NCBI GenBank assembly: GCA_965234725.1 | Contig: CBDDUX010000026.1 | Location: forward strand, 26,371 to 90,370 | Length of the DNA stretch: 64,000 bases | Direction: 5' to 3' | Origin: Thermoplasmatota archaeon | GTDB lineage: Archaea > Thermoplasmatota > Penumbrarchaeia > Penumbrarchaeales > Penumbrarchaeaceae | Shown here: one piece after another, positions 13,550 through 57,077 of the stretch | How the letters are laid out: every line of letters starts with the position of its first letter | Position numbering within the stretch: the first letter of the stretch is position 1 | Notes under the pieces: generated by a model | The model's input: the letters and a program-made list of their open reading frames with translations, nothing else | Databases searched by the model: none | What the model was told of the DNA's origin: nothing | Position numbers and translations under genes: made by a program

Positions 13550-13563
13550 TCGGGCGATGTTAA

Positions 13564-14583: not shown

Positions 14584-14692
14584 TTATCTACGCAGGACCG
14601 TATTCAAACTTACTGAGTCCAGTTATTCAAAAAATTTTTCAATTGTCTGAAAACATCAGCAGTATTAAATATCCTTCCCTCGGTGAACTTCC

Positions 14693-17270: not shown

Positions 17271-17447
17271 CAGAACTCACCCAGATCGATCTATGCCAGA
17301 GGGCAGATTACACCGATATCGATGGAATGTTGAGCCAGATAATTAATCTATTCCATGGAAATTTTCAAATACTATCCATTCTGAGTATGTAGTTGATGAT
17401 CATCAATTACATAATCAGTGGAAATTTCCTTAAAAAGGTTAGATATA

Positions 17448-17459
17448 TTTTTATAAATA
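17448..17459 (+). promoter_or_regulatory. TATA-box-like element upstream of GT2 gene
   Basis: tttttataaata in the divergent intergenic region between the GT4 (-) and GT2 (+) genes. Confidence 0.3.
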
Positions 17460-17538
17460 TCTCGACTTCTTCTGGTATTATTAATCCAGAGAACGGCTAT
17501 CAATTACAGCCCTCATACCAGGCGAATGGGAAGATATC

Positions 17539-19295: not shown

Positions 19296-19303
19296 GGTGT
19301 TAT

Positions 19304-20368: not shown

Positions 20369-20415
20369 TATTGGCAAGAGACGTAATAGGAAAATCTGAA
20401 TTAATGTCCAAAAGA

Positions 20416-21165
20416 TTACCCCTCAGGAGGTCCTGAATACAGCTTACCAGAATCCGAAAGGGAGACCTTGACATATCTGCCCTTCTTGATCAATGATACA
20501 TATCCCTCCTTTTCAAGGGACCTCAAAACCCTGCTGAGGTAGGCCCTCTTCCTGGCGAGATAGGCCCTCTTTGATTCTCCCTCCCGTATCTCGGTGAAGA
20601 AACCCTTCGATCCCTCCATTGGTTGTATGAGAGCGCCCTCGTGCCTTACACTTCCACCCAAGGACCCCAGGACCTTCAGAAGCTCCTGTCCTGCCGGACT
20701 GGGTCCGATTATCCTGACAGATGGTATCTCCATAACGGATGATACACCGATGGAGAGGACCTCCTGGTCATGGGGTATGGAATATTCCTCGGGTCTAACA
20801 TAATAGGGATGTGATCCGGTCATGAAGCATGATAGAAGGGCCGCTGAGGTGATTATCCTGTTACCCGTGGAGAGGTTGACATATACCTCGAACCCATCGG
20901 ATATCAAACCATTGAACAGGGATGTCAACATCCTGGAAGATGTGTAGAAATCGAATATGTCCAGTGTCATCTCCTCTATGTCAATGGTAGCCGAGACCTT
21001 TTCCTTTATCCTGTCCCCATTCCTTCTTGCCCTCTGCTCGATATCCGATCCCTCATTGCTTCCGTAGATCAGTATGGCCCTGTTGGTGGGAAAGAACTTC
21101 AAGCCCCCAAGGACCCTGTCTATCTCCAGACCCATCGGTATGACGTGGACGGTTCTCTTCTCCAT
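20416..21165 (-). CDS. Csa3-like transcriptional regulator (CARF-type Rossmann-like ligand domain + C-terminal winged HTH)
   Basis: IPMGLEIDRVLGGL and VYVNLSTGNRIITSAALL blocks mirror the two conserved Csa3/CARF motifs; C-terminal KRAYLSRVLRSLEKEGYVSLIKKGRYVKVSLSDSG wHTH. Alternative start at 21270. Confidence 0.5.
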   Translation of the reverse strand: MEKRTVHVIPMGLEIDRVLGGLKFFPTNRAILIYGSNEGSDIEQRARRNGDRIKEKVSATIDIEEMTLDIFDFYTSSRMLTSLFNGLISDGFEVYVNLSTGNRIITSAALLSCFMTGSHPYYVRPEEYSIPHDQEVLSIGVSSVMEIPSVRIIGPSPAGQELLKVLGSLGGSVRHEGALIQPMEGSKGFFTEIREGESKRAYLARKRAYLSRVLRSLEKEGYVSLIKKGRYVKVSLSDSGKLYSGPPEG

Positions 21166-21356
21166 GCTATACGATATTGACGTATAGAGATATCTATTTT
21201 CGTATAGATCAAAAGTCAACTCATCTATACACTCATGGAACCTCCGATACGTAGGACCATTTAAATCCAAACGCGACCATTCAAGCTTTTGCTGTCAGGG
21301 ATGGGGGCAGCTACGGGGAAGGACCATCTCGTCTGTTTATCCGGGAATGATCTTGC

Positions 21357-23213
21357 ATGGTGGAAGCATTGGCCGTCAACGATGAAGGGGACCCAGTTTA
21401 TCAGGGAATGCATTCCGATATCATTCAGTCCATGGACAAGAAGATGGACATTCTAGCCCTCGTCCCCTCGGTCGGTTCCCTGGCCAGGAGCTTCATCGGA
21501 AAGACCTTTTTAGAGGCCAGAAGGAGGAGGAAGAAACCGATATTCCTGACCTCCTCCCATGATGCATCATGGATACATTCTGCTATTATGGAAGCAAGGG
21601 GTGTGGACCGCGGGAGGGAAGGCATCGTCTCCATAGGAAAGGATGTGATGTCCTGCATGGAATTCGATTCCAGGATAGATCCGGGCGACATGATCAACCA
21701 CTGCTTCAGGAAAGGGACGATCGAGACATGTCCGTTCCAGTCCGGTTTCGATCTCGATATCTACAGGGACCTCAAACGGAGCGGAGGCGCCCTTCTCCAT
21801 GACATGACAGAAGAGATGAGGCAGAATGGAATGTGTCCGGCCAGGACAGCACTGGATCTCGTTGTCGAAGCTGAGGCTGTTGTGGCCCACCCATCGTTCC
21901 TTTTCACTGAGGACTGGAAAGGTGTCATGGAACTTTTGGAAAGGGATGGAAGCGGTTGCATCCTTGTGATACATGACCCGGCCTATCTGGTAGAGTTCCT
22001 TGATAACAGGTTCTCCTACGAGTTCACATCTGATGACCTAACCAAAGATAAATGGACCATAGAAGGCCTGACCGTTGAGGAACAATCCGGTCTATATCTC
22101 CTGGTTGAGCTTCTATCGGAATTAGCTGCCAGGACAGATCCCATGAAGCAGATCGAGAGAAGCCTTCTCATACAGAATCACAGGGACAGGGCGCTGGTCA
22201 ATGGAAGTGCCGGACTAGTTGCTGTTATCTCTGCTTTGAAACGCGTCCTTGAGACCGGGATCCAGGGTAGTATCTCTCGAAGGAGGAGTATTAAGGACCT
22301 CTACATGTTCCTCAAACTTTGGATGGGCCAGTATACTGGAGTGTCAAGGGCCAGGAGGGAGTCTGAGGATGGTGACAGTGTCGAGGTCTCTCTGGTGGAT
22401 ATTTCGTTGATGACCCAGCCTATCCTCCAGACGTTCTCCACTGTAATACTGTTCGGAGATACGCTCTATCCCCATTCGATATACAGTTACACACTTGGTA
22501 TGAGGTCCGAGAGGATCATGAACAGAACATATATTGACAGATCGACAATGGATGGCACCCATGTCATTTCCATAGGGAATGTTGACATCTCCTATAAGCA
22601 CAGGTCAGAGGCCTCCTATGCAAGGGTGGTGGAGGGTCTCTCCAGAATATGTGAGACCACTCCGGGACTCAAGATCGCCGTCTTCCCCTCATATTACATC
22701 CTGGAGCAGGTAATGGGATCCATGGCTGAGAACGTCTTTGGCTACCCGGTGATAGATGAGACTAGGGGGATGTCAAAGGAAGCAAGGGGACATCTGCTTA
22801 CAGAGGTAAAGACCGGTGGGGACATACTTGCACTTACTGTTCAGGGAAGCTTCCTTGTGAGGTCCGTGGAGGATGGTTCCATCAGTCCTGATGCAGTGAT
22901 ATTGGTAGGGCTCCACATACCTCCTCCCGATGCTGGATCCACACAGAAGAAGGTTCACCTCCAGAAGAAGTACACACCCAATATCGGGCACATCATTACT
23001 GTCTTGATGCCTGCGATAACAAAGGTCTTGAGGATGGTCAATACCATGATGTCCTCGGACATGGACCGAAGGAACATGGTGATCCTGATGGACCGTAGAT
23101 ATCAGGACCGCAGGGTCCTTGAATGCCTTCCGAGGTTCTACGATATCAAGCTCCTTTCTTCTCCAGGAGAGTTCGACGGAAGCAGGATCCTTGAGGGAGG
23201 TGATGGTGGTTGA
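21357..23213 (+). CDS. XPD/Rad3-family (SF2, Fe-S) helicase paralog with degenerate catalytic motifs
   Basis: Walker A ARSFIGKT, 4-Cys Fe-S insertion, CPARTALDLVVEAEAVVAHPSFLF (matches XPD post-Fe-S block), motif II DEAH replaced by HDPAY, motif V/HD2 block ILALTVQGSFLVRSVEDG...VILVGLHIPPPD, motif VI arginines absent. Confidence 0.65.
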   Translation: MVEALAVNDEGDPVYQGMHSDIIQSMDKKMDILALVPSVGSLARSFIGKTFLEARRRRKKPIFLTSSHDASWIHSAIMEARGVDRGREGIVSIGKDVMSCMEFDSRIDPGDMINHCFRKGTIETCPFQSGFDLDIYRDLKRSGGALLHDMTEEMRQNGMCPARTALDLVVEAEAVVAHPSFLFTEDWKGVMELLERDGSGCILVIHDPAYLVEFLDNRFSYEFTSDDLTKDKWTIEGLTVEEQSGLYLLVELLSELAARTDPMKQIERSLLIQNHRDRALVNGSAGLVAVISALKRVLETGIQGSISRRRSIKDLYMFLKLWMGQYTGVSRARRESEDGDSVEVSLVDISLMTQPILQTFSTVILFGDTLYPHSIYSYTLGMRSERIMNRTYIDRSTMDGTHVISIGNVDISYKHRSEASYARVVEGLSRICETTPGLKIAVFPSYYILEQVMGSMAENVFGYPVIDETRGMSKEARGHLLTEVKTGGDILALTVQGSFLVRSVEDGSISPDAVILVGLHIPPPDAGSTQKKVHLQKKYTPNIGHIITVLMPAITKVLRMVNTMMSSDMDRRNMVILMDRRYQDRRVLECLPRFYDIKLLSSPGEFDGSRILEGGDGG

Positions 23214-23983
23214 GGTTCTGTGTGCTAGGTTCTTCTTCATCGGGAAACTCCACCCTTGTCACCCACAAGGACACGACCATTCTCATAGATGCTGGACTTC
23301 CTCTCCGCTATACCGTAGAAAATATAATATCCATCACAGGAAAGGATTCTCTGGATGGCATATTCATAAGCCACGAACACTCCGACCATACAAGGAGCCT
23401 TAAACCGCTTGCTCAGAGATACGGATGTCCTGTCTTCCTTTCCCCTCCGGTATCGTGGTATATCGGTCCCGGGGAGGGTATGGACATCAGGAAGGTCAGG
23501 GACGGATGGAAGGTGGGGGTCGGACCACTGATGATAACTCCTTTCATAGTATCCCATGATGCCATAGATCCGTACGGGTTCATCATTGAGGACGAATACG
23601 GTTCCATGGGTCTTGTAACAGACCTTGGATGCTATGACGATAACATTTGCGACAGATTGAGGAACAGGGATGCACTCGTTGTGGAATCGAATTATGATCT
23701 GGACATGCTCGTGAACGGAAGGTATCCCCATTACCTGAAGAAGCGGATCCAGGATGGCAAAGGCCATCTATCGAACCAACAGTGCAGGGACCTTCTCGAG
23801 AACATAGTAGGGCCGAGGACCCGTGATATTGTCCTTGCACACCTTTCCGAGGAGAACAACGATCCCCTCCTTGCAATGGAAACTTCTCTTGAGGTCCTTG
23901 AATGCATGGAGTCGCCACCTTCGCTCCATGTATCCTATCCAAAGCATCCCACATCTGTCCTCGATCTATCCCGGACACCCTGA
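23210..23983 (+). CDS. MBL-fold metallo-hydrolase (YycJ/PhnP-like)
   Basis: HEHSDH (HxHxDH), downstream SHD, D and H ligands; TTG start overlaps upstream stop (TTGA). Confidence 0.75.
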   Translation: MRFCVLGSSSSGNSTLVTHKDTTILIDAGLPLRYTVENIISITGKDSLDGIFISHEHSDHTRSLKPLAQRYGCPVFLSPPVSWYIGPGEGMDIRKVRDGWKVGVGPLMITPFIVSHDAIDPYGFIIEDEYGSMGLVTDLGCYDDNICDRLRNRDALVVESNYDLDMLVNGRYPHYLKKRIQDGKGHLSNQQCRDLLENIVGPRTRDIVLAHLSEENNDPLLAMETSLEVLECMESPPSLHVSYPKHPTSVLDLSRTP

Positions 23984-24111: not shown

Positions 24112-27009
24112 TTGGAGGCATATCATATGTACCCCTCAACGGCTCCTAGAAGGACCGGAAACATGGAACCGCCCGGAAGAAGATATCAACATAGCAGTAA
24201 CGGACCGCAGTATGCACGGACAGGTCCCGGACCAGAGCGATCAAGACCAGCCCATTCGGGATATGACACAAGAGGCCATCGAAGGTATAGGGCCGTTGAA
24301 GAGGCTGCTCCGGATGGGGAGATCTCAAGATGGGCAGGCGAGAACAGGGGTCTGCTGACGGCAGTTCTGGTGATCTCCATCTCATTCATCATGGTCCTGG
24401 CTGGTCTGATGGTATGGGCGAACAATGATGATAATGGTCCTTCAGGACCGACCTATTCGATAACCGAGTTCAGGGGCGGATCCTCCGAGGTCCTGGTAAA
24501 TGCGACCTTTCTGGGGAATGATGCCTTCATCACCGTACCCTGGAATGCTACTGTGACGGATGCTTCCCTTAGGATATCGGGTGCCCTTCCACCTGAGAGA
24601 AGAACATTTGAGGCCGGAAAGAACCCCATCGATCTGGATGTGGGTGATATCGATCTCGACCTAAGGGCAGATGCCGTTGTATTGAACTACGGGGATTCCA
24701 CACTTATGGTCATGCGCAACCTGGGAGATGGCAGATTCCAGAGAGGAAGGACGATCCAGGTAGGAAACGCTCCGATCAGGGTCGAGCTGACATATCTGAA
24801 CAATGATGCCTACCTGGATGCGGTGGTCCTTTCCGAGGATTCCCGGGATATGAGGGTCCTGATAAACGATCAGGTCGGAGGATTCATGAACAGGGGAGAC
24901 CCGTTCCTTCTTCCAACCCTTCCATCGGATATCGGTGTCATAGACCTTGAGGGAGACGGTGATAACGATATAATTGTGTCAACTGTGAAAGACAACAATG
25001 TGACAATGTACATTAATGATGGCAATGGCATTCTAACCCAGGGTTCCAAGCTCCTTACCGAAGGGAACCCAACTCGCCTGGGGATATCCGATATGGATGG
25101 GGACGGCCTTTCAGATATCGTCGTTTCAAACCGCAGGGACCTGGATGAGAATCTGACACCCAGGGACAAGGAAAAGAAACCTGTCAATTGGTTCAACTCC
25201 ATATCGGTCTTCAAGAACATGGGTGATCTCACTTTCACGAAGTTGGTTGATGATATAAGGTCTGAAAAAGGAGTAAGCTCAATTGCATTGGGGGATTTAA
25301 ACGGAGACGGGTCGGATGATATTGCGATGTCCAACCTGGGATATCATAATATTTCCTATGTTCTCAGCGATGGAAAGGGTGATTTCATCAGAGGTGACCC
25401 GTGGGAGCTTGACGTTGTCGAGCTCAGGTCCATGGACCCGATAGAGATGAAGCTTGAAGACCTGGATTCCGATGGTGATCTGGACCTTTGGGCACTTACC
25501 AAATCGGCTGATTCGGTCCTCTTCTATTGCAACATTGGGAATGGGGAGTTCCTTCCCTACTCCCAGATATTCGTTGGTGTTAACCCCACATCCTTCGAGA
25601 TGATAGACATGGATGCCGATGGGGACAAGGATATCATGACCTCGGACTGGAGAGGCTGGGATATGTTGTACAATGGCAATTCCACGATCTCTGTCATAGA
25701 GAACATGAGAGATGGGGTCTTCAAGACATACAGACAGTACACCACAGGTAACAGTCCCAGGGGCGTATTTGCCAGGGACATCGACATGGACGGTGATCCT
25801 GATATTGCATCTGCCAACTACTTCGGGTCCACCGTTTCGATCTTGGAGAACGATGGTCTTGGGAGATTTTCCGAGGACAGGGAATACCCCATAGGTTTGG
25901 AACCCTACGCGGTAGTGCTTGAAGATTTCGACGGTGACGGTCTGGTTGACGGGGCATCTGCTGATGAGGCAAATTTCAGGATAGTACTCCTTAAGTCCAA
26001 TGGTGATGGTGGTTTCACCACTGACAGGTACCTCTATGATATCGGAGCATACCCGTTTTCACTGAGGACAGGGGATATTGATGACGACGGGGATATGGAC
26101 CTCTTCACTTCCAACTATTTCCAGAATTCCACCACTCTCCTGTTCAATGATGGTTCCGGTGATTTCCAGACCATGTTCAAGAACACCAAGACCATATTCC
26201 TCGGGGACAAAATGCCCTATGATTCCATAATGGAGGACCTGGATGGTGACGGTCTCAAGGACCTGATAACTGTCAACAGAGGTGATTCCCTCGATCCAAC
26301 GGATACCATTAGCGTTATGCTGAACGATGGTTCATTCACCTTCGATGTGATGAACGAATACAAGGTGGGAAAGGAGCCCACCTCGGCTGTTGTGATGGAC
26401 CTTGACATGGACGGTGATCTGGACATAGGGACGGCTGATACAATGGGAGATAGTTTCACGGTCCTACGGAATAACGGGGATGGAGTTTTCGAAGCTTGGG
26501 AATCACACCCTGTTGCCGATAGGCCGCAGTACATCAATTCATTCGATTTCGATGGTGACGGTTGGCCAGACATCCTTGTCAGCTCATCGGATTCGAATTC
26601 TCTGTCCTTCTTCAGGAACGAGGAGGGTGCAGGTTTCACATGGTTCACCGATCAGAACATAGGGGCCTATCCTTATGCCATAGAGATGGCGGATTTCAAT
26701 TCTGATGGGAGAATGGATATGGTATTGACCTCCGTCAACACCAACTCGGTCATTGTTACCGGATGCTACTACTATCCACATGGTCTAATGATCAACATTG
26801 GAAAGGATTCCTCGATAGAGGTCCAACATGATGGAATGCTTTCGCCGGATGTTGTTCTTCAACTGGAAATGAAGAATGAGCTGAACAGATATATCAAGGC
26901 TAACAGGGTGGAGGGAGAGGACCTTAACATTCCTTTGAGCATAATATGCCAGCAGGAAGGTATTGTCAGGTTGTCAAACCTGCTCGTGGTCTACTCCCTT
27001 GATGGTTGA
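24112..27009 (+). CDS. FG-GAP/VCBS repeat (integrin-alpha-like beta-propeller) membrane protein
   Basis: Arg-rich N-terminal cytoplasmic segment, TM LLTAVLVISISFIMVLAGLMVW, then many DxDGDGxxD FG-GAP calcium-binding repeats. Confidence 0.7.
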   Translation: MEAYHMYPSTAPRRTGNMEPPGRRYQHSSNGPQYARTGPGPERSRPAHSGYDTRGHRRYRAVEEAAPDGEISRWAGENRGLLTAVLVISISFIMVLAGLMVWANNDDNGPSGPTYSITEFRGGSSEVLVNATFLGNDAFITVPWNATVTDASLRISGALPPERRTFEAGKNPIDLDVGDIDLDLRADAVVLNYGDSTLMVMRNLGDGRFQRGRTIQVGNAPIRVELTYLNNDAYLDAVVLSEDSRDMRVLINDQVGGFMNRGDPFLLPTLPSDIGVIDLEGDGDNDIIVSTVKDNNVTMYINDGNGILTQGSKLLTEGNPTRLGISDMDGDGLSDIVVSNRRDLDENLTPRDKEKKPVNWFNSISVFKNMGDLTFTKLVDDIRSEKGVSSIALGDLNGDGSDDIAMSNLGYHNISYVLSDGKGDFIRGDPWELDVVELRSMDPIEMKLEDLDSDGDLDLWALTKSADSVLFYCNIGNGEFLPYSQIFVGVNPTSFEMIDMDADGDKDIMTSDWRGWDMLYNGNSTISVIENMRDGVFKTYRQYTTGNSPRGVFARDIDMDGDPDIASANYFGSTVSILENDGLGRFSEDREYPIGLEPYAVVLEDFDGDGLVDGASADEANFRIVLLKSNGDGGFTTDRYLYDIGAYPFSLRTGDIDDDGDMDLFTSNYFQNSTTLLFNDGSGDFQTMFKNTKTIFLGDKMPYDSIMEDLDGDGLKDLITVNRGDSLDPTDTISVMLNDGSFTFDVMNEYKVGKEPTSAVVMDLDMDGDLDIGTADTMGDSFTVLRNNGDGVFEAWESHPVADRPQYINSFDFDGDGWPDILVSSSDSNSLSFFRNEEGAGFTWFTDQNIGAYPYAIEMADFNSDGRMDMVLTSVNTNSVIVTGCYYYPHGLMINIGKDSSIEVQHDGMLSPDVVLQLEMKNELNRYIKANRVEGEDLNIPLSIICQQEGIVRLSNLLVVYSLDG

Positions 27010-27024: not shown

Positions 27025-29064
27025 TCATGCCAACCTGAAATGCTCTCCACAGAAGGGACATTCCCCCTTCTGTGCGACCTTTTCAGTAAGGTTCCTGTTG
27101 CATCCGGGACAGAGGTAGATGGTGACCTCTTTCTCCCCTGTGCTGAACATCTCTCCGCAGTGAGGACAGACGGACGATCCAAGTTCCTCTTCTGAGAGTA
27201 TCCCGCTGCAGTGCGGGCAGTGATATTCAACGGATCCTTCATCTTCCATTCTTGAGAGTCTTTTTTTCTCCTCTTCCAGTTCATCCTTCATCTTCTTGAG
27301 GTTCTCCTGGGCCTTCTTGATCGATGCAGACCTCTGATCCAGGTCCTTTCTCTCTGACCCAAGCCCATCCTTTGTGGAATCGAGTTCGTTCTTGTATACA
27401 TCGAGGTCTCTTCTATTTGCTTCAAGCTCTAGCCTGATGTTCGAGATCTCCTTCCTTTCATCCTCAAGCTTGGACCTATCGTCTTCCAGCTTCAACAATT
27501 CAGCGGAGGATTCCTCGATCTCCTTTCTGGCTGCAGCGATCTCCTCCTGTTCTACCGTGAGGTTCTGTTGGAACTGTTTCAGGGATTCACCGTACTGTTT
27601 CCACTTATCGGCATCCAGTTTCAACTGTTCTTCCCAGGTTTTTAACTCTACCTCTTTGCTTTCAAGTGACTTCTCCATGTCTGTCGGGTCCTTGGCTTGT
27701 TCGATGGTTCCAGGAGTAGCTTCCAGTTTCGCTTTAAGGCTCACGTTCTCCTCCTGAAGCTTGACGATCATGGCCTCAAGGTTCTCGGAATTGTGCCTTA
27801 CTTTGCGGAGCTCTTCTTCCAGGAGGCTTGATCTGACCAGCTCTTCCTGCTTATCGTCTTCATTTTCGGTCTTTGCGGAATTTTCCAGCTCCTTTTTAGC
27901 CGCTTCGAACTCCTGTTGGACCTTGTTGAACTCTTCTTGTTCCTTGGTCAGGTCCTGCTGGTACTGTTTGAGGGACTCTCCATACTGTCTCCATTTTTCT
28001 GCACTTTCCTCGATCTGGGCCTCCCTCTGGGTAAGTTCCATCTCACGCTCTTCAAGGGCGGCGGTGTCAACCTTTTCCTCCTCACCACCGGTTTCCTGGG
28101 CTTGTTTCAACTGTGAGTTCTGCTCCTGAAGTTTCATCACAGCCTCCTGGAGCTTCTCAAGGGTGGCATCCTTCTTGTTGATCTCCTCTCTGAGTGACTC
28201 GATCTCTATTGATGTGGATGATCCAGGTGGAACAGATGAGGATCCCTTTTCATCGAACTCACTTCTTTGTCTTTCGAATTCTTCTTTTACCCTGTTGAAC
28301 TCTTCTTGCTGTTGGGTGAGGTCCTGATGATAGTTTTTGAGGGTCTCACCGTATTCCTTCCATCTTGTGGCCTTTTCCTCAAGCTCGGCCTCTCTGGAAG
28401 CCAGGACGGATGCCATCTCTCTGAGTGATGCATCTTCTTCATTGCTTTCCTTGGGGTTTTCCTTTTCTTTCAACTCCCTGTTCAGTTCCTGGAGCTTTAC
28501 AACTGCTTCCTGGAGTTTGATGACTGTTGCCTTTGATCCCTCAAGCTCCTCCCTCAGAGCATCTATCTCTCCGCTATCCACAGAATTATCCTTCACACCT
28601 TCTGTCCCACTTTCTGGTCCCAGGGTCTTGGACCTTTCATATTCTTCTCTTTCCTTGTTGAACTCTTCCTGCTGTTGGGTGAGGTCCTGATGATAGTTCT
28701 TGAGGGTCTCACCGTATTCCTTCCATTTCTCAGCGTTTGTTTCGACCTCTCTCTCCTTTCCCAGAAGCTCCTCCTCTCTTGAGGCCAGCTCCTTGGAAGC
28801 GGTCTGATACTGGTCTCCTGTTTCCTTGAGTTTCAGATTGTATTCCTCAAGTTCCTTCCGATAGTTCTCGAGGTCGACCCTCGCCTTCTCGATCTCCTTT
28901 TCCCTCTCGGAAAGGGATGACTTCATCTCATTGATCTCCAGTAGTCTCTCCCGCAATTTCGCCTTCATCGGATCAATGTCCGCGGCTTTATCGGTCGTTT
29001 TCTCATCATTACTGCTGGCATTTGCCTCGGGCATATGATTCACTCCATTCCTTAAATTGACCAA
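27025..29064 (-). CDS. Long coiled-coil protein with C-terminal double zinc ribbon
   Basis: E/K/Q-rich heptad sequence with four internal about 100-aa repeats (KWKEYGETLKNYHQDLTQQQEEFN); C-terminus CPHC...CPHC...CPGC...CPFC. Confidence 0.6.
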   Translation of the reverse strand: MVNLRNGVNHMPEANASSNDEKTTDKAADIDPMKAKLRERLLEINEMKSSLSEREKEIEKARVDLENYRKELEEYNLKLKETGDQYQTASKELASREEELLGKEREVETNAEKWKEYGETLKNYHQDLTQQQEEFNKEREEYERSKTLGPESGTEGVKDNSVDSGEIDALREELEGSKATVIKLQEAVVKLQELNRELKEKENPKESNEEDASLREMASVLASREAELEEKATRWKEYGETLKNYHQDLTQQQEEFNRVKEEFERQRSEFDEKGSSSVPPGSSTSIEIESLREEINKKDATLEKLQEAVMKLQEQNSQLKQAQETGGEEEKVDTAALEEREMELTQREAQIEESAEKWRQYGESLKQYQQDLTKEQEEFNKVQQEFEAAKKELENSAKTENEDDKQEELVRSSLLEEELRKVRHNSENLEAMIVKLQEENVSLKAKLEATPGTIEQAKDPTDMEKSLESKEVELKTWEEQLKLDADKWKQYGESLKQFQQNLTVEQEEIAAARKEIEESSAELLKLEDDRSKLEDERKEISNIRLELEANRRDLDVYKNELDSTKDGLGSERKDLDQRSASIKKAQENLKKMKDELEEEKKRLSRMEDEGSVEYHCPHCSGILSEEELGSSVCPHCGEMFSTGEKEVTIYLCPGCNRNLTEKVAQKGECPFCGEHFRLA
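28293..28364. repeat. Intragenic 72-nt repeat copy 1 (coiled-coil module)
   Basis: 72 nt, 70/72 identical to 28656-28727; encodes the EYGETLKNYHQDLTQQQEEFN module on the minus strand. Confidence 0.8.
28656..28727. repeat. Intragenic 72-nt repeat copy 2 (coiled-coil module)
   Basis: Near-identical to 28293-28364; more diverged copies at approx 27921-27992 and 27570-27620. Confidence 0.8.
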
Positions 29065-29105
29065 GCCTCACTGTGCAAGGTCCTATATCTTTTTCACTTC
29101 ATTTT

Positions 29106-31385
29106 CTAGGTCCCTTCCTTTTGGGAGGGTCCATCGTCAAGATCTCCATTGGAAGTTATCTCCTTTGGATCTGAATGTTTTTTCATTGTTACCTTGAATT
29201 CCTTTAATTTCTTCTGGATGCGCTCCCATTTCTCCTTGAGTGAGGCTTCTCTTTCATTCAATGAGGCCTCTTTACCCTGCAGGGAACTTTCCCAGCTCTC
29301 AAGGAAACCCTTCTGACCATCCAGCTGTTCCTTTCTACCTTCAATTTCAATATTTGAGGCCTCAAGGAGCTTCTTGTATTCCTCGAGTCTTTTGGAATAA
29401 TCCTCCCAATCCTTCTTGACCTTTTCAAGCTCAGCGGCTTTTTCAACAATCTTGTTCTCTTTAAGAACAAGTTCCTCCTTGAAGGTATCCGATTCCTGTT
29501 TTTCAGAGGCTAAATTTGCCCTGGTCGAATCAAGTTTGGAACTTTGCTCAGCTAAGTCCTTCTCAGCTGATGCGATCTCTTTCTCCCTTTTGTCAAGGTT
29601 CTCTTCTTTGGGCCTGATGACATTTTCCCTCTCCTCCAGTTCCCTTCCCTTCTCCTCCAGTTCCCCTGATCTCTCCTCTGCCTTTTCCTTTATTGATGTC
29701 AATTCAGTGGAAAGTTTTTCCAAAGATGAGGTCTGCTCATTGAGCTCGATCTCCTTTTTTTCCGCATTCTCTTCTCTTTTCTTCATAACAAGGTCCAAAC
29801 GGTCCAATTCTTTTTTCCGCTTGGAAAGATCCTTTTCTCTCTCGGATATTCCATTTTCCCTCTCATCAAGTTCTGCAGAATGGTCCACAAGTGACCTTTC
29901 GGTCTCCTCGATCTCCTGGGTCCTTTTTTCAAGGTCCTCCTCTTTTTCTTTAATGATCACCAAATTATCTCTGATACTGGACCGATCCTCTTCGAGTTTC
30001 TCTTCGATTTCCTTGATACGTTGTTCCTTCTCTGAGAATTTAACCACCCTTTTTCCAAGGTCCGCTTCCGCAGCAGCGAGATCGTTCACATTCTGCTTCT
30101 GTTTCTCATCTCTCAAATCAAGTTCGTTTGAACGGTTCTGTAATGAATCCTCTCTATTCTTGATATCATTTTGAAGTGCCTTCAACTCTTCTTCCTTTTT
30201 CTCAAGGGAAGAAAAGATCTCATCCAATTCCCTGGACCTTGTATCAAGGGCTGCGCTTCGGGAATCTACATCCTCCAGCTTCTTCCTCCATTCTCTCCTC
30301 TCTGCCACTATGTGCTCTTTTTCGATCCTTGCTGAACCGATCAATGAATCGAGTTCCTCTTCCTTTCCCTTGAGGACCGATGTCAATTCCTCATTCTGTT
30401 CGAGGTTCTTCTTCGAGATGTTGAGTTCTATTTCCTTTTCGTTCAGGGATGCCTGTCTTTCATTCAGATCATTCTCCCTCTCATCCAGGTTCCTGAACCG
30501 ATCGAGTATGTCCTTTGATCCCTCTCTTTTCCTTTCGAGTTCCTCTGAATCATGGGAGATCTCAAGAGCCTTTTCCTCAAGTTCTCCTCTGTATCTCTCA
30601 AGTTCCTCTCTGAACTTGAGATTTGATTCCCTGTCCTCTTCCATCTCTTTTTTAAGAGTGTTGACCTTTTCTCTCTCTTCATCCATTTCGGCGTTGAGCC
30701 TCCGGATCTCATCTTCCTTTTCCTCCAGAAGGTCCGCGGCCTGGTGATCGTTCATGGAAGTCCCAGAGACCATTTTCAGTTCTTTGGAAAGCTCCTGGTT
30801 CTTGGTATTGAGGTCGGAGATTATCTCTGCCTGGTTTTCGATCCTCAGTTTTAGTTCGTTCAATTCCTTGATATGCCTCTGGTGGATCTCCTCTGAGCCA
30901 TCTGTTTTGCTGGTTGAAGTTGCTTCCCTTGCTTCCTTGAGGTCACTCTGGAGCTCTATCATCTTCTTTTTAAGGTTCTCGTTTTCTTCCATCAATTTAT
31001 TAAATGAGGCAGGGTCGACCTCCATTTCCTTGATCTGGTTCTGTTTCTTTATGATCGATCGAAGCTGTCTGTTTATTGATCCATAGATCTTGATCTCCTC
31101 ATCCCTGTCCTTCCCATCATTTAGCTCTTTCAGGTCTTCTTCCTTGGATCGAAGGTCTTGAGATATGGCATCAAGTAGTGCAAGTGTCTCTTTGTCATCA
31201 GAACCTTTCTCAACGGAACGCTTCCTTGCATCCCCTTCCAATACGCTGGAATCAGGCATGACAGTGAATATACCCTGGCATTTCATGCAGCTATATGCCT
31301 TGGGACCCGTGGATACTTCTGCCCAGAGCTTTGACTTGCAGAAGGGGCAGGTGAAGATCTTTCTGTTCGAACCTTTAATATCCAA
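29106..31385 (-). CDS. Long coiled-coil protein with N-terminal zinc ribbon
   Basis: N-terminal CPFC...C..C ribbon, then 700 aa of E/K/L/R heptad coiled coil; same strand and adjacent to the 27025-29064 gene. Confidence 0.6.
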   Translation of the reverse strand: MDIKGSNRKIFTCPFCKSKLWAEVSTGPKAYSCMKCQGIFTVMPDSSVLEGDARKRSVEKGSDDKETLALLDAISQDLRSKEEDLKELNDGKDRDEEIKIYGSINRQLRSIIKKQNQIKEMEVDPASFNKLMEENENLKKKMIELQSDLKEAREATSTSKTDGSEEIHQRHIKELNELKLRIENQAEIISDLNTKNQELSKELKMVSGTSMNDHQAADLLEEKEDEIRRLNAEMDEEREKVNTLKKEMEEDRESNLKFREELERYRGELEEKALEISHDSEELERKREGSKDILDRFRNLDERENDLNERQASLNEKEIELNISKKNLEQNEELTSVLKGKEEELDSLIGSARIEKEHIVAERREWRKKLEDVDSRSAALDTRSRELDEIFSSLEKKEEELKALQNDIKNREDSLQNRSNELDLRDEKQKQNVNDLAAAEADLGKRVVKFSEKEQRIKEIEEKLEEDRSSIRDNLVIIKEKEEDLEKRTQEIEETERSLVDHSAELDERENGISEREKDLSKRKKELDRLDLVMKKREENAEKKEIELNEQTSSLEKLSTELTSIKEKAEERSGELEEKGRELEERENVIRPKEENLDKREKEIASAEKDLAEQSSKLDSTRANLASEKQESDTFKEELVLKENKIVEKAAELEKVKKDWEDYSKRLEEYKKLLEASNIEIEGRKEQLDGQKGFLESWESSLQGKEASLNEREASLKEKWERIQKKLKEFKVTMKKHSDPKEITSNGDLDDGPSQKEGT

Positions 31386-31778
31386 TCACATCACCACACG
31401 AACATAATGATCCAGGGACCTTTCCCCCATATGTAGGATATATTTTAATACGTTTTGTTGGATAATGCCAAATTCGATCGAACATCCATTGATTTATTGA
31501 ATTAGAAGGTGACGATGATCGATGGATCGATCGTTCCTTCGGATATTTTTTTCGGGCTTTTGGTGACTTGTCTGATGATATACCAGAAACTTAATGAATG
31601 TTTACAAGTGTGGCCAATCCTAGGCATATCGAAAAGCAAGTTACTACCCATGTCCCTTCATATGATCCGGACTGGGAGTGGATCGAGACTTATAGTATAG
31701 ACATGAAATGGTGGTGGGATCGTGCCGATCCCCTGGGCAGGGATCAACTCTTTCTAAAAACAGCATGAAGGCTAAAGA

Positions 31779-32105
31779 ATGATCGTGTCTAAGAAACTGA
31801 AATGGAATCCGAACAAATGGAAGGAAAAACCCAGGTATGAGCTGGACCTCTCTATAAACAAGAGACGTATTCACATTTTTTACCATCACTCAGAGATCTC
31901 CGAGGGGAGATTGATCAACGATATTGAAGAAAGGAGCGGTCAAGAGGTAGTTGTCTATATACCGGAAATGCCCAAAATTGGAGAGGATATCACCTTCTAT
32001 CTATGTATAATAGGATATCTACCCAATTACTCAAAACTCTGTCCTCCGGAATCTGGGTGCTGTCCCCATTGCGGAGAAAGAATATCGGGATACAGTGAGG
32101 CATAA
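31779..32105 (+). CDS. Small Cys-rich (zinc-ribbon-like) hypothetical protein
   Basis: C-terminal CPPESGCCPHCGE cluster; upstream of J-domain gene on same strand. Confidence 0.25.
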   Translation: MIVSKKLKWNPNKWKEKPRYELDLSINKRRIHIFYHHSEISEGRLINDIEERSGQEVVVYIPEMPKIGEDITFYLCIIGYLPNYSKLCPPESGCCPHCGERISGYSEA

Positions 32106-32223
32106 TATCTCCTTCAAGTAGATCCGGATCAATTTCCAGATCATAACCTCTTTTTAAAAATGATCGGATAATTCACAGGATTATAGTTTGTGACATAAAC
32201 TTTTTAAACACATCCAGGATTAG

Positions 32224-34335
32224 ATGACTATGATCAACCAGGGAACCCTGGGCCCAACACCTCAGGCACGCCGAGCTTTCGTGGCATTGGGTTTATGCCT
32301 GGTATTCTTCCTTTCGGTCCTTTTACCAACCGGAAATGTGATGGGAATGGGATCCCGTGCTCTGGTAACCTACATCGGATCGATCGAAGGGGACGGAGAT
32401 GATGGAGAGACGGTCCTTGCAGGTTATCGATGGTATACCTGTAATTTCACATTCATAGACTGGATCGAGGGAATTGACTCTTCCCTGGTCACAATTGAGA
32501 GGGGAGAGGGAGAGGATGAGGAGCTTTTCCATTTCGATCCGGAGGGATCCAATCTTACATTTTTGGAGACCTCAAAGACTATCGATGTAAAGGACCCGAT
32601 GATCGTACTTCAGAACGGTAGGAACCTAACCCTCACCTTCAAGATCTGGATCCACTTGAACTGGACATTTCAGACACAGGTGACATTGAAACCGCGCATA
32701 TGGAGCAATGGTTCTGAGGTCGGCCTCGATTCACCCCAGTTACTGAGGTTTGATATCTATGGATATCTTCAGCCTGTCAGAGACCTGATAAGGGTGGTAG
32801 ACCACTTAGGAAATGATATCCGGACAGGAGAAGCGGTCCTTTCAAACTCCACCATATCATTAACCGGACTCAATTTCGAATATGATGATAACTCAGAGAG
32901 ATTCTCCGGGCTCAGGCCGGACCCTGAAAGGGTCCATCCGCAAGTGGAATATGGGACCATGTCCACGAACGCTACCTTCATGACAAACGGATTTCAGGCA
33001 GAGATCATGGTTCCGGACCTTGAAAGCGGAAACCTGATGCTATCCATAGACATTCCGGGTGTGAGGAGTGAATGGAAACTCGCCCTCTCGGCATGGTCCT
33101 TCTCTCTTGACATCGACGGGATAGGACCGAAGATAGAGATCACCAAACCAGCCCCTGGAAAGACACAATCCGATAAGGAATTCGTATGGAACATCACGGT
33201 GACCGACCGACCCGTTACAGCTGGTGTTTATGTAAACGGTTCAACTGTCAGATATCGGGTCTGGACCATAGAATCGAACTGGTCACAGTGGTACGATATT
33301 CCTTCCTCAACTGATGCAAGGTCCATCTTCTTTTCCGGTTCTGCTACAGGTATTCCAGGGACCGGGACCACAATGATCCAATTTATGGCCGAGGATGTTC
33401 TTGGCAATGTCAATATCACAGAACCATACCCTGTGAAGATAAACAAGGCCCCTTCCCTGAACATCTCAGAGGTCATAATAGGCCTGGAATTGCCCAATAA
33501 TAGTTCATTGGAGTTAGACGGATCGGACTATGTCAGCGATCCGGACGGGGATGCCATATTCTACAAATGGTATCTTGATGATTCCGAACCACTCTCCACC
33601 CTTGCAAATTTCAGAAAACCCCTATTTGATGTGGAACCCGGTGTCCATACCATCAAACTGGAGATAAGTGATGGCCACGAAGAGGTCTCACAGTCCTTTA
33701 CATTCAATGTCACCAAGGCTAAGGACCGAGATGAGGGAAAAACCTGGTTCGAGGAGTTGATGGAAGATGAGAACCTTTTCTGGTATCTTCTTCCCATCGC
33801 CCTTATTGCTATATTGATACCTCTCATCGTACTCATCCTTTTCATATCAAGGAAGGCCAGGGAAAGGAGGGGGGACGATTTCATCATCGATGAGGATAGG
33901 GCCATGGACATGTCCCAGGCAGAGGAGACGGCAAAGCGGATATTGGATAATATGACCGCCAGGGAATCCGTTGATTTTCAGACATCCTCCTATGCTGTTA
34001 CCATAGATGAGGGATTCGATTTCGATTATGATCTCTATGAGGTCCTTGGCCTTGAATCGAACGCAACTGAAACTGAGATCAAGAAGAAATACCGCAAATT
34101 GGCGGCATTCTATCATCCCGACATGGTCGCACAGCACGGGGAGGTGTCCGGGGAGGATTCCGCCGAGGAGATGATGAGGATAAACAAGGCAAAGGAGGTC
34201 CTTCTTAATCCAGAAAGGAGGGTTATCTATGACTCCTACATCAATGACTTGGATTTCTCCATGGATATCGGGGACATGGGGGACATGGGGGATATGGGGG
34301 ATGACGATCCCGACTTCGATGATGAATGGACTTGA
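32224..34335 (+). CDS. Type-I membrane protein with large extracytoplasmic domain and cytoplasmic C-terminal J (DnaJ) domain
   Basis: N-terminal signal/TM, TM LLPIALIAILIPLIVLILFI at approx aa 515-535, J domain DLYEVLGLESNATETEIKKKYRKLAAFYHPDM...AEEMMRINKAKEVLLNPERRVIYD with HPD; (MGD)n acidic tail. Confidence 0.7.
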   Translation: MTMINQGTLGPTPQARRAFVALGLCLVFFLSVLLPTGNVMGMGSRALVTYIGSIEGDGDDGETVLAGYRWYTCNFTFIDWIEGIDSSLVTIERGEGEDEELFHFDPEGSNLTFLETSKTIDVKDPMIVLQNGRNLTLTFKIWIHLNWTFQTQVTLKPRIWSNGSEVGLDSPQLLRFDIYGYLQPVRDLIRVVDHLGNDIRTGEAVLSNSTISLTGLNFEYDDNSERFSGLRPDPERVHPQVEYGTMSTNATFMTNGFQAEIMVPDLESGNLMLSIDIPGVRSEWKLALSAWSFSLDIDGIGPKIEITKPAPGKTQSDKEFVWNITVTDRPVTAGVYVNGSTVRYRVWTIESNWSQWYDIPSSTDARSIFFSGSATGIPGTGTTMIQFMAEDVLGNVNITEPYPVKINKAPSLNISEVIIGLELPNNSSLELDGSDYVSDPDGDAIFYKWYLDDSEPLSTLANFRKPLFDVEPGVHTIKLEISDGHEEVSQSFTFNVTKAKDRDEGKTWFEELMEDENLFWYLLPIALIAILIPLIVLILFISRKARERRGDDFIIDEDRAMDMSQAEETAKRILDNMTARESVDFQTSSYAVTIDEGFDFDYDLYEVLGLESNATETEIKKKYRKLAAFYHPDMVAQHGEVSGEDSAEEMMRINKAKEVLLNPERRVIYDSYINDLDFSMDIGDMGDMGDMGDDDPDFDDEWT
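34270..34300 (+). repeat. 9-nt tandem repeat (GGGGAYATG)x3+ encoding (MGD)n at the C-terminus of the J-domain protein
   Basis: ggggacatg ggggacatg ggggatatg ggggatg read directly. Confidence 0.7.
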
Positions 34336-34411: not shown

Positions 34412-37400
34412 TTGAAGAGATTATCGTCCGTTTGGAAGAACAACGGATCGAAGGATAGGTTTTTAGCGGTATCCGAAGCCGTTGGAACGGTCCTCCTTCT
34501 TGGCATATCCATCACGCTAGCAGGCGGTATTGCGGTATGGACCTCCAATATTGAAGAAGGTGAAGAAGGTATCTATGTCGATCTTTGGGCAAATGTTCAG
34601 GGAAACGACCTGGTTATTGTCCACAGAGGTGGGGATCACCTTGACGGAGTGAATACAAAGATAATGATCACAGATTCATCGAGATACAGTGTTATAGAAA
34701 ATACTTACACTGTCATGTCAGGAACGAACGATGATACCTGGTCTCCTGGAGAGGAGTTGGTTATCGATATAACAAATCCTTCTGTTACAGATACGTTCAA
34801 AATAATAGTTACAACCACCAGAGATAATGGTGAAGCTGTTGTTATTTTCAACAATGAATTGCAGAGGTCTAATTCCAATACCGGTCTCCCTGACCTTGCG
34901 ATCACAATGATAAATCTGAGAGACTCAGAAGATAATATCGTAACCACTATTCTGGACAATGGAGCATACGTCATCCAGATAAGGGTTTCGAATTTCGGAT
35001 CTGATATGACGACCGTCCATCATTCGGATCTTGGAAATGGTGCTATATCAAATCTCAAGATATTTGACTCGAATGAACCCATAGATATGGCCTCGGTCAC
35101 TTACAGTCATTATACAACCGGAGATGTAGAGGTCTTTGGTCCTGACGACCTGGGGAAAATGAAGAATGGAGATTACATGGTATTTGATTTCATTTGGCAG
35201 GTCTCCGGCAGCATTCCAAGATCACTTGGTCTCCATAGATTCAATGTGAAGGTCATTCCTGTTTATACTGGAGAGCTGAATTACAGGAACAATTACATCG
35301 AGAAGAAATTCAATGTTGATAAGGAACTGACACCTCTCGATATCCATGGTCCGGACCCAGGTATCTACGATATTCTTTTCTCGAACGAAGCTCCAAACAG
35401 TGGTGAGGAGGTTACTGTTACAGTGATCATCCAGAATTCCGGTGATGAAGGGATCGAGATCACGCATGGAGTTAATTTGATAGTCACAACTTGGGAACCG
35501 GAAAGGTACCATGACTCTTATGATGAAAGTGAGATCCATGATTGGAAGATGGATTATGAAGGATACTATGGCATGTGGAGGAGTGAATACAGTGAGGTGA
35601 TCCCTGTAACCGAGGATGACACATTCCCTACCTGTGTCAGAACAAACATCGAACTTCTCCCCGGAGCGTATCTATTCTTCTATTTCACCCTGGAAGCAAG
35701 GGTTGACGTCCCTGGAGGTGAACAGTGGGTTTTCGCAGCGATCGATGCCTTCAATGATAATTCTCAACCCCAGGGGATCGGATATTATCCAGGAGGAGAT
35801 GATCCAGGCGACAATATGAGGCTCGGAAAGATCCAGGTCCTTCCGAGGATCCTGGTGGTCGATGATGACGGATCTCCAACAGGAACCGAGGGTGACATGA
35901 CATCAACAGTTCTTGAAGCTCTCATAGGAGCTGGTGTGACAGTGGACAAGGTTTTCACTTCCCAGGAGGTAAGCGATCATTCTGATACCAGGGATGCACC
36001 GGCTTTCTCCTACAATCAAGCGGAGATATCCGCACCTGCAATGGAAGATTATGATATTGTTATGTGGGTGACCGGATTCGAGACGGATCCTCTTACCAAT
36101 GTTCCAAACGATCCTGTGAAGGATATTGGAGGAAATATCCAGGAGATAATGAAATATCTTGATTCAAACAGATATTTCCTCTTGGTTGGCACTGATCCTT
36201 TCAACGGATTGATGTCCTACTTCAATTCAAAGTCCACAACAGATCGTATTGTGGAAGACGACCCGAGCTTGGATGCCACTGCCTTCCTCTACAAATACAT
36301 GGGGATACAGCAGGTTACAACAGATGTTAACATTTCTGCAGGTGATCCCCCAACGTTACATGGAATGGACATATTCGTGGACCTTCAATTATCATCACTT
36401 GAAGGGGACCTGATAATCACACATAAGTCCGGAGATGATATCAGTGGCACTAATACAAATATTGTGATCTACGATCAGTTTGCGACACCTGTGATATCAG
36501 GTTCATATTCAGATTTTTCAGGTACCTTTGGAGAGGATTGGTCATCAGGGACCGAAGTAAGCATCGATCTGTCAACTTTGACACTTTCCGACACCTATGA
36601 TATTGTCATCACGACCCCGAGGGACCTGGGAAGTACCATGATAGTACACAAGAACGAGTTCACAATGTCCGATGAGATCGGAGAAAATCCTTCGATAAAA
36701 TATGGTGATATTTACCCGGGAGGTATATCAAGCAGGGATGAGACAATTGAACTCCTCACCCAGACTCCAGGAAATGGATTGATGAACCTCTTTGTAATAA
36801 GGAGTAGCTATGAGGAGAATCTCTTCGAGATACCTGTGGGAACATTAACGAACTCGGATGAAGTTGTCAAGGCAGATCCAAGTTTCAATTCGATAAGGTC
36901 CTTTGGTACACCTGATGAAGACCTATTCGATGCTGCATACCGATCGGTCGTGCTTGGCTGGGACATTACCCAGATAAAGTATCTCAACGAGAAAGTCGAC
37001 CTTTTCTCTGATATACTCAAGTGGTTCGACTGGGAGGTGGAGGTTGGAAGGGACCTTGCTGTTACAAGGATGAACCTTTATATCATCTCAGAGGATGAAG
37101 AGGGAAATTGGTTCAACGATCCTGTGGACGAGGATAATGCTCCCAAGTACCTGGACACTGTTCTTATTGAAGCATATGTGAGGAACAACGGACCCAATCT
37201 GGAAAGTTCTTCAGTAATGTTCTATGTCACAGGTCCAGATGGTTTGGAGCTTCCGATAACACCGAACATTCCAGATCCCAGAGATGACCTCGAGCCCGAA
37301 TATTATGATAATCCATATGACATGAACGGTCTTTCAGGAGGGGGGGCCGAGGAAAGCGTTTTCAAATTATGGCTTGCGGTGGGAGTAGGGACATACACAT

Positions 37401-41146: not shown

Positions 41147-41158
41147 GGAGGTGAACCC

Positions 41159-57060: not shown

Positions 57061-57077
57061 CCCCCGGGGGTTGAACT

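Follow-up and report, generated by a model that had tools for sequence, protein, structure and literature searches.

Long coiled-coil proteins of archaea are routinely given the automatic name 'chromosome segregation ATPase', and a locus in a 64,000-nucleotide stretch of Thermoplasmatota DNA (GenBank assembly GCA_965234725.1, contig CBDDUX010000026.1, positions 26,371 to 90,370 of the forward strand; hereafter the window, in whose own numbering coordinates are given) raises the question of what a family so named may be. Two adjacent minus-strand genes of the window, here called P1 and P2, encode proteins that are nearly all heptad coiled coil, with a zinc ribbon at the N-terminus of P1 and a double zinc ribbon at the C-terminus of P2. 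Are these two proteins or one, and what could a rod with two unlike ends be doing in the cell? The evidence assembled below favors the view that P1 and P2 together correspond to a single cytoplasmic rod protein, specific to a lineage of uncultured Thermoplasmatota, now encoded in two pieces and likely serving as a two-part tether or scaffold, and we would put the probability of this view at roughly one half.

The gene pair

P1 and P2 are arranged head to tail, with 41-71 nt between them depending on the start codon chosen for P2. P1 (29106..31385, minus strand) is an open reading frame (ORF) of 759 aa with a TTG start, which directly follows an in-frame TGA, stands 5 nt past a Shine-Dalgarno-like GGTGA (31395-31391) and is the sole start to take in the first CPFC knuckle, a knuckle also present in homologues. 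P2, on the same strand, extends over 27025..29064 if read from a TTG (679 aa) or over 27025..29034 if read from an ATG (669 aa); the ATG at 29034 is probably the genuine start, since it is preceded at a distance of 6 nt by GGAGTG (29046-29041) and has an identical context in L002, a Logan contig about 88% identical to the window DNA (related loci are designated by such L numbers). A TATA-like box, TATTAAAATATAT, was read from the sequence at 31438..31450 on the minus strand, some 55-65 nt upstream of the P1 start codon, and is a candidate archaeal promoter for the P1-P2 unit.

Both are real genes under purifying selection: when the window is compared with L002, the ratio of nonsynonymous to synonymous substitution rates (dN/dS) comes to 0.17 for P1, 0.17 for P2 and 0.10 for the C-terminal ribbon domain of P2, at a dS of about 0.47. 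Charged residues constitute 41-46% of each protein and net charges of -48 and -62 render the two strongly acidic, while neither contains a hydrophobic segment, a transmembrane segment or an ATPase. A preliminary description of the locus, made from the sequence alone, had presented the pair as an operon of two proteins. Its adjacency, shared strand, short gap and lack of an obvious T-run terminator within that gap are in keeping with the first half of this phrase, and co-transcription is what we infer; the second half needs amendment, as the pair is better described as the outcome of a gene fission.

Segmented coiled-coil rods

The coiled coil, for which dedicated prediction had been proposed as a check, is borne out both by heptad statistics and by AlphaFold2 (AF2) helices, in agreement with the earlier account of two adjacent same-strand genes for proteins of 759 and 679 aa that consist almost wholly of heptad coiled coil. 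The hydrophobic excess at heptad positions a and d is 0.468 in P1 and 0.490 in P2 (0.25 ± 0.02 in 100 shuffles), the top spectral peak of P1 is at a period of 3.5 residues, which ranks among the top peaks in P2 as well, and 42-52% of 28-residue windows score above 0.5, as opposed to about 2.5% after shuffling. Helices are modeled at residues 63-86, 93-120, 125-158, 164-206, 213-341, 357-569, and 596-736 of P1, and at residues 16-137, 154-191, 200-263, 274-315, 324-439, and 450-597 of P2 (predicted local distance difference test, pLDDT, 76.5). In both models, 6-7 long helices are split by low-confidence Pro/Gly/Ser linkers and no globular domain lies inside the rods; P1 and P2 are thus predicted to be segmented rods rather than one continuous coil, and in P1 the heptad segments take up about 670 aa after the N-terminal ribbon.

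The P2 rod is, in addition, modular. There are four occurrences of a tryptophan-containing motif (W-motif), KW+xYGExLKxYxQxLTxxQEEF, whose W residues fall at aa 114, 235, 358, and 488 and which recurs every 121-130 aa; the modules also share a second motif, L.EA[IV].KLQEEN..L (LQEAV.KLQEEN in a shorter reading). A module hidden Markov model (HMM) detects exactly four strong copies in P2, each at E ~1e-24 to 1e-26. Counted from the ATG, the four A-motif copies, all on the minus strand, cover aa 84-136 (28627..28785; E = 1.6e-25), aa 206-257 (28264..28419; E = 6.7e-26), aa 328-381 (27892..28053; E = 2.2e-24), and aa 458-510 (27505..27663; E = 2.3e-24). Motif and HMM agree on the four modules previously reported, which here measure about 120 aa each. 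The conserved C-terminal block of P1 (aa 655-735; 29181..29423, minus strand), which reads DWEDYSKRLEEYKKLLE...GRKEQ...WE...EKWERIQKKL, carries a fifth, diverged W-motif at W660. These last ~80 helical residues are the best-conserved part of the P1 rod within the clade formed by the window and the related locus L156, whose P1 counterpart is 36% identical overall, and the block is a candidate docking region for P2.

Rods of this kind inevitably invite comparison with SMC and Rad50, and an SMC-like function was among the options listed in the preliminary description; it would imply a part in chromosome organization or DNA repair. Matches to the NCBIfam SMC/ASRP models and to JetC and LmuB of PADLOC reach E-values of 1e-8 to 1e-15, the homologue P0008 bears the IMG name 'chromosome segregation ATPase', and zinc ribbons often bind nucleic acids. 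Nevertheless, these matches involve the arms only, at 16-55 bits against cut-offs of 300-729: the NCBIfam models TIGR02168, TIGR02169, and NF045487 score 32-55 bits, and JetC and LmuB at most 34 bits, again within coiled-coil arms, and none of seven surrounding proteins that were screened is a JetC or LmuB partner. A Walker A motif ([AG]xxxxGK[ST]) occurs in none of 12 family proteins, no ATPase head is present, CxxC motifs are confined to the terminal ribbon domains, leaving no mid-rod CxxC hook, and the rods are strongly acidic, with a C-terminal ribbon that is neutral to acidic. Judged by these sequence features, membership of the SMC family is effectively refuted and an SMC/Rad50-like role highly improbable; the IMG name is the usual coiled-coil artefact, and is wrong for this family.

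Zinc-ribbon ends

Scans of P1 and P2 with Pfam, NCBIfam, PADLOC, and PHROGs returned nothing specific beyond generic zinc ribbons. The N-terminal ribbon of P1 (aa 8-50; 31236..31364, minus strand; CPFC-x16-CMKC-x3-FTVxPD; net charge about +5) is of the C4 type, with ligands C13-x2-C16 and C33-x2-C36 (C13PFC16...C33MKC36), and is modeled by AF2 as five beta-strands with a block-mean pLDDT of 74-82. Residues 1-12 (MDIKGSNRKIFT) are polar and form no N-terminal amphipathic helix. The ribbon is kept in P0008 of L001, in P0024 of L083, and in L119, and it stays below the cut-offs of the TFIIB/MJ0042-type ribbon models of Pfam: the P1 domain scores 18.2 bits against Zn_ribbon_TFIIB (PF13453; cut-off 22), and among PF13453 and Zn_ribbon_4 (PF13717) the L083 orthologue reaches 25.3 bits against a cut-off of 30.3.

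The C-terminal tandem double ribbon of P2 (27028..27228, minus strand; two units of [YF]xCPxC-x13-CxxC-x3-F; net charge -5) takes up the last 67 residues, with four CPxC knuckles, and all eight of its cysteines are invariant in an eight-sequence alignment. In isolation this domain exceeds the cut-off of Zn_ribbon_6 (PF07191; 25.7 vs 25 bits), while in the full-length P2 scan the double ribbon scores 20.9, under the cut-off; the C domain of the L119 orthologue passes both DZR (PF12773; 27.7 vs 27.3) and Zn_ribbon_3 (34.3 vs 27). A PDB profile search with the C ribbon found generic ribbons only, weakly matching RpoP, DUF1610 (entry 6ydh), and YfgJ, and a Foldseek search with the P2 model likewise gave generic zinc-finger matches; neither search produced a match at E ≤ 0.001. 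The ribbons described earlier, one at the start of P1 and a quadruple-CxxC double ribbon at the end of P2, therefore stand, as the cysteine motifs and the AF2 models (a small beta domain at P2 aa 603-669, where the cysteine motifs lie, and likewise in P1) agree.

Across lineages, the N ribbon is 32-37% identical over some 90-100 aligned residues (45% in a 51-aa BLAST core) and the C double ribbon 29-45% identical, while the rods barely align, selection being concentrated on the ribbon ends. The two ends also differ in charge, the N ribbon carrying +3 to +5 in all four lineages and the C ribbon -5 to +2. This distribution of conservation bears on the idea that the proteins self-assemble into an intermediate-filament (IF)-like filament of the crescentin or FilP type, laterally or head to tail, perhaps through contacts between N and C ribbons, to form a cortical structure that shapes probably wall-less cells. 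A long segmented heptad rod with linkers is what such a filament would be made of, the W-motif and LQEAV.KLQEEN could act as lateral contact sites, and the L119 protein weakly matches the crescentin rod model Rod_CreS (PF19220) at 31.8 bits. That match is far below the cut-off of 100, however, P1 and P2 give none at all, poorly conserved rods with conserved ends are the reverse of typical IF-like rods, and strong negative charge disfavors lateral packing unless counter-ions or partners are at hand. We consider a filament of this sort unlikely, with an appreciable residual chance of being correct.

One gene in some relatives, two in the window

The question of two proteins or one is best approached through the relatives of the pair, which are few. 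An exhaustive phmmer search of 1.84 billion representatives with P2 produced 19 matches only; extra members came from exact-protein look-ups and from a degenerate nucleotide pattern modeled on the second ribbon, the 93 matches of which were mostly bacterial PriA and included four true family members. Full-length P1 and P2 found no match among 5.8 billion proteins, in a search whose word index was saturated by coiled-coil words, and a scan of genome contigs with P2 yielded nothing, as did exact look-ups of two proteins from the window. Searches by way of neighboring genes fared similarly: an alignment of the adjacent FG-GAP protein retrieved from genome contigs only generic bacterial FG-GAP proteins at no more than 33% identity, and a metagenome scan with an alignment of the giant adhesins retrieved nothing. 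The family is rare, lineage-specific, and unnamed, and apart from generic zinc ribbons neither Pfam nor NCBIfam has a model for it. As to the lineage itself, GlnA proteins at least 90% identical to those of the L085 and L083 lineages appear in nr under the names 'Thermoplasmata archaeon' and 'Candidatus Thermoplasmatota archaeon', and members of the NMD3 and archaeal pilin families also occur in the window.

Homologues joining ribbon, coiled coil, and ribbon, which the preliminary description had suggested looking for, do exist, and as single genes. In L001, P0008 (957 aa), which is among the 19 phmmer matches, combines a P1-type N ribbon and a P2-type C double ribbon in one ORF; in L119, a single 802-aa gene encodes both ribbon types and six 'KW.ESY..LKEKYDKL' modules. 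L001 is collinear with the window through genes for a radical-SAM protein, GlnA, a PfkB-like protein, a helix-turn-helix (HTH) protein, a helicase, a metallo-beta-lactamase (MBL)-fold protein, the FG-GAP protein, the rod, a J-domain protein, and a giant Pilin_N protein; orthologues are 32-73% identical, and the single rod gene occupies the very slot that P1 and P2 share in the window. Two-gene versions are found in L083, L084, L100, and L179 (451 aa plus 846-848 aa, L084 carrying the same two proteins as L083) and in L156, where the P1-like ORF is at least 354 aa and the P2-like ORF 732 aa long and the neighboring FG-GAP protein is 60-67% identical to that of the window. L167 has an ORF of at least 673 aa that reaches the contig end. 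Total rod length ranges from 802 and 957 aa in the single genes to 1,297 aa in the L083 pair and 1,438 aa in the window pair. A further apparent two-gene locus, the NCBI metagenome-assembled genome contig L085 (ORFs of at least 389 aa and of 291 aa, overlapping by 4 nt; L085:1000-1330), was rejected as such, its downstream frame reading coiled coil (..LRGQLEKYRQQLENTSKQ) before its ATG; it is probably one ORF of at least 680 aa broken by a frameshift, on a contig that ends before the informative region.

Where two genes are present, they are divided at corresponding positions. The N-termini of the P2-like proteins are homologous ('[SP][VI]EELR..L+E') in the window, L156, L083, and L100. Homology likewise extends to the split point, between the window and three further two-gene loci that represent two more lineages, and the position of this point falls just past a Pro/Gly-rich linker of the one-gene L001 protein. 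L002 matches the gene order of the window from the FG-GAP end through P2 into P1 and has the same P1 stop and the same P2 start, with the two ORFs in the same frame and two stop codons between them. Single-T insertions in L002 P2 (L002:1430 and L002:2379) probably reflect Logan assembly errors rather than a pseudogene, because dN/dS between them, in the frame of the window, is 0.14. The split recurs in samples that were assembled independently, so it does not stem from faulty assembly of the window.

The junctions themselves may retain traces of how the division arose. In L083 (9940-10010) and L100 (280-360), the halves are in the same frame with a single TGA between them (..KDLLK* D[DE]LYHQGGWL LF.G..), AAGGAGG and a start codon follow a few codons past this TGA, and the TGA is kept in both diverged assemblies; it may be what is left of the nonsense mutation by which the gene was divided, or it may permit stop-codon read-through giving a full-length protein. 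The spacers of the window and L156, by comparison, contain indels and stops in all frames. In the window, the fission-point spacer (29035..29105, minus strand) follows the P1 stop TAG (29108-29106) and presents stops in three of three frames, then GGAGTG, then the ATG at 29034. L002, L156, L083, L084, and L100 show the same pattern of a stop followed by a new start. A neighbor-joining tree of the FG-GAP proteins has the topology (L119 one-gene, (L001 one-gene, ((L083, (L156, window)), (L167, L085)))). With one-gene loci basal in this tree and the split loci in one clade, a single fission, in the common ancestor of the window, L156, and L083, is the most economical account. P1 and P2 are, by this comparison, to be read as halves of one ancestral gene, a point missed in the preliminary description.

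Gene conversion among the modules

The two-gene rod is also notable for the exchange of sequence among its modules. Near-identical tracts lie in module 1 (28656..28727, minus strand, encoding KWKEYGETLKNYHQDLTQQQEEFN) and module 2 (28293..28364, minus strand, encoding RWKEYGETLKNYHQDLTQQQEEFN), and match at 69 of 72 nt rather than the 70 of 72 previously counted, while other module pairs are 72-84% identical over 116 nt. The likeness is limited to ~73-90 nt inside modules 1 and 2 and ends abruptly: the whole modules share 210 of 369 nt, and identity outside the ~73-nt core is only about 47%. Within the core, window copies 1 and 2 differ at 3 sites and the two copies of L002 at 9, while orthologous copies differ at 5 and 7; two of the sites group copies by genome and two by position.

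The repeat had been taken as a very recent duplication, implying ongoing expansion or contraction by recombination. That recombination acts on the modules is upheld, whereas a recent duplication with change of copy number is not: the flanks of the tracts are ~47% identical, and four modules are already present in L002 and in L156, so copy number, named at the outset as a means of checking, proved invariant among the window, L002, and L156. As L002 carries the same four modules, the array is older than the divergence of L002 from the window. The modules of L156, spaced unlike those of the window, include a 174/181-nt tract of their own between modules 3 and 4, again with sharp boundaries (L156:5200-5800, in the P2-like gene at 4904-7102, minus strand), and modules cluster by genome rather than by position. 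Given the abrupt tract limits, the four modules in relatives, and the L156 tract in a different module pair, the simplest reading is recurrent short-tract gene conversion centered on the W-motif, with copy number stable.

Proposed function

The following scheme would account for these observations. Between the small, basic N-terminal ribbon and the C-terminal double ribbon, P1 and P2 together comprise about 1,200 residues of acidic, segmented coiled coil of the two-stranded type, composed of ~120-aa modules joined by flexible Pro/Gly/Ser linkers. The ancestral form is a single gene; in the ancestor of one sub-clade it was cut at a linker by a stop codon together with a new ribosome-binding site and start codon, and the halves have been kept adjacent ever since. 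In P2, modules exchange short stretches by gene conversion on the aromatic W-motif while their number stays at four. The two chemically different ribbon ends may be binding modules for two targets, the basic N end perhaps binding membrane, an anionic surface, or nucleic acid and the neutral-to-acidic C end a protein partner, with the fast-evolving rod acting as a length-adjustable spacer. The halves may re-associate non-covalently, perhaps via the conserved C-terminal block of P1. Function as a two-ended tether or scaffold is our best guess from these features, and the tether and cytoskeleton-like options of the preliminary description are both carried forward here. The FG-GAP protein, the membrane J-domain protein, and the giant pilin-like adhesins are candidate targets. 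A more elaborate picture, that of a hitherto undescribed archaeal structural system in which a rod of ~150-200 nm if fully extended runs under the membrane of probably wall-less Thermoplasmatota and links surface machinery (the same three neighbors) or the divisome to the cell interior, still functional after its division because the halves re-assemble, and with recombining modules tuning its length, is speculative and has rather low odds.

Several points weigh against the split-tether interpretation. The polarity of the fission derives from a seven-taxon, midpoint-rooted tree of a neighboring gene, and the excess likeness of the paralogous over the orthologous cores of the window amounts to very few sites (3 vs 5-7). 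The unequal halves of L083 (451 vs 846 aa) counter any simple antiparallel pairing of halves; an SMC-like antiparallel arrangement of equal-length halves was rejected on these same lengths. Moreover, the whole region, glnA, helicase, and MBL gene included, is collinear among relatives, such that the kept FG-GAP, J-domain, and giant pilin-like neighbors may reflect common descent and not a functional cluster, and the most distant member, L119, has different neighbors save for a nearby FG-GAP gene. On account of this collinearity and of the differing L119 neighbors, genomic context is weak evidence.

Should the tether interpretation prove false, P1 and P2 would still be a rare structural protein confined to one lineage, though of limited general interest. 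Even so, two unlike zinc-ribbon ends on a modular rod make for a clean and testable architecture, the one- and two-gene versions in the same genomic slot constitute a natural experiment, and the modules offer a clear case of short-tract gene conversion within a coding repeat.

Genomic context

As stated in the preliminary description, the pair lies between an FG-GAP protein and an adhesin cluster. A J-domain gene stands between the pair and the Pilin_N giants. The FG-GAP beta-propeller membrane protein (24112..27009, plus strand) is convergent with P2, and its gene adjoins the rod gene or genes in all six syntenic relative loci that cover that side; in L119 it is nearby with two genes in between, and L084 has an unscreened, cut ORF at the FG-GAP position. 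The first ~76 aa of its longest ORF (24112-24340) are Arg/Pro/Gly-rich with no counterpart in the L001 orthologue, and the true start probably lies further downstream. The J-domain membrane protein (32224..34335, plus strand) is divergent from P1. It begins with an N-terminal signal/transmembrane segment, has an Ig/PKD-like region outside the cell and, beyond a second transmembrane segment, ends in a J domain in the cytoplasm, an unusual way of bringing Hsp70 to the membrane; its gene is kept beside the rod gene or genes in L001 and L083.

These neighbors raise the possibility that the rod is a cytoplasmic scaffold of the adjacent surface-adhesion cluster, coupling J-domain, FG-GAP, and pilin-like adhesin proteins to the cell interior. 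The window, L001, and L083 agree in the order of FG-GAP gene, rod gene(s), J-domain gene, and Pilin_N giant, although the proteins are only 32-50% identical, P1 and the J-domain gene are divergent, and an FG-GAP gene is still found near the rod gene in L119. Yet synteny extends into housekeeping genes and linkage may thus be inherited rather than selected, the probably over-called start of the FG-GAP protein would leave it little cytoplasmic tail, and L119 has no J-domain neighbor. Such a dedicated scaffold is, in our estimation, quite unlikely.

Other features of the region are recorded here as observations in their own right. The P1/J-domain intergenic region (31386-32223) measures 839 nt in the window and ~160-220 nt in L001 and L083; it includes an ORF of 108 aa (31779-32105, plus strand) that ends in CPPESGCCPHCGE and has no match in Pfam, PADLOC, or PHROGs. 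The Pilin_N giants (34412-47710; 2,244 and 2,183 aa) combine archaeal type IV pilin N-termini with CARDB, VWA, and MAM-like domains, and two small pilin-like proteins, one of them a DUF7289 protein, follow them (34412-49397 overall), with no assembly ATPase gene nearby. On the other side of the pair, some 15 kb of glycosyltransferase, epimerase, and surface-protein genes (6000-20400; of lower GC content, 0.39-0.45) between the HTH regulator and the helicase probably represent an inserted glycosylation island, which is not at that position in L001, L085, or L167; L179 has only a CARF/Csa3-like gene there. Next to it (20416-23983) are a CARF3/Csa3-like regulator, a DinG/XPD-like helicase, and the MBL-fold protein. 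The helicase-MBL pair is kept in every relative locus covering the region (L001, L083, L085, L156, L167, and L179) and the CARF-like gene only in L083, L179, and L180; the window contains no CRISPR array or cas genes. Lastly, in a stretch of ~3.9 kb (56583-60445; GC content ~0.40) no ORF exceeds 102 aa, Rfam gives no match at gathering score, and clear repeats are lacking, which is unusual for an archaeal window whose remainder is densely coding; scans for Rfam families and tRNAs came back empty.

Comparison with known systems

Parts of the P1/P2 architecture have parallels in several described systems. Zn_ribbon_6, DZR, HVO_2753-type small proteins, and RpoP share the CPxC-x13-CxxC ribbon type of the P2 C domain, although the generic archaeal C(P)xCG ribbons are free-standing or enzyme domains and none is joined to a modular coiled-coil rod. 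SMC, Rad50, and ASRP proteins have the long coiled-coil arms in common with P1 and P2; among named models theirs score best, and the automatic IMG name goes back to them, but their ABC ATPase head, hinge, and zinc hook are missing here. Crescentin and FilP/Scy are likewise segmented heptad rods with linkers, cytoplasmic and non-enzymatic; they lack zinc ribbons, however, and it is the ends rather than the rod that are conserved in the P1/P2 family. A similar general plan is seen in EEA1 and the golgins, very long coiled-coil tethers with small binding domains at their two ends, both of which bind zinc in EEA1. The likeness resides in a spacer-type rod with end domains, given that there is no sequence relationship, that the zinc folds differ (C2H2 and FYVE), and that these proteins belong to eukaryotic endomembranes.

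The closest described architecture is that of CdpC (HVO_0399, DUF7093), the FtsZ1 membrane anchor of Haloferax volcanii, a 346-aa protein in which a C3H N-terminal zinc ribbon with an amphipathic membrane helix binds the membrane, a single C4 C-terminal ribbon binds FtsZ1, and a long, fast-evolving, disordered linker lies in between; both ribbons are essential, the ribbons alone are conserved across lineages of its relatives, and distant multi-ribbon relatives have been reported in all Thermoplasmatota classes (bioRxiv 10.64898/2026.07.16.738847). A zinc ribbon at each end, basic at the N end and neutral to acidic at the C end, a long, fast-evolving middle, and a cytoplasmic location in an archaeon would all be compatible with a division tether of this type, the N ribbon of P1 contacting the membrane and the double ribbon of P2 contacting FtsZ or another divisome protein. 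On the other hand, the rod family is an 800-1,300-aa modular and structured, not disordered, coiled coil, its N ribbon is C4 and has no amphipathic helix, and its C end is a tandem double ribbon. When the isolated end domains were scanned against Pfam (E ≤ 10), DUF7093 was absent from the complete 14-family list for the P1 N domain and from the best 25 matches for the C-terminal domains. Furthermore, a core divisome anchor should be widespread, the P1/P2 family is extremely rare, and no division genes lie nearby. A CdpC-like division role is consequently improbable, and, in the absence of a DUF7093 match and with these differences in N ribbon and middle, CdpC is an analogue at most. Should the ends of the P1/P2 rod nonetheless bind a membrane and a cytoskeletal or surface partner, as our split-tether interpretation allows, they would add to the recently described CdpC a second kind of two-ended tether in archaea, one based on coiled coil, and in a phylum for which almost no cell biology is available.

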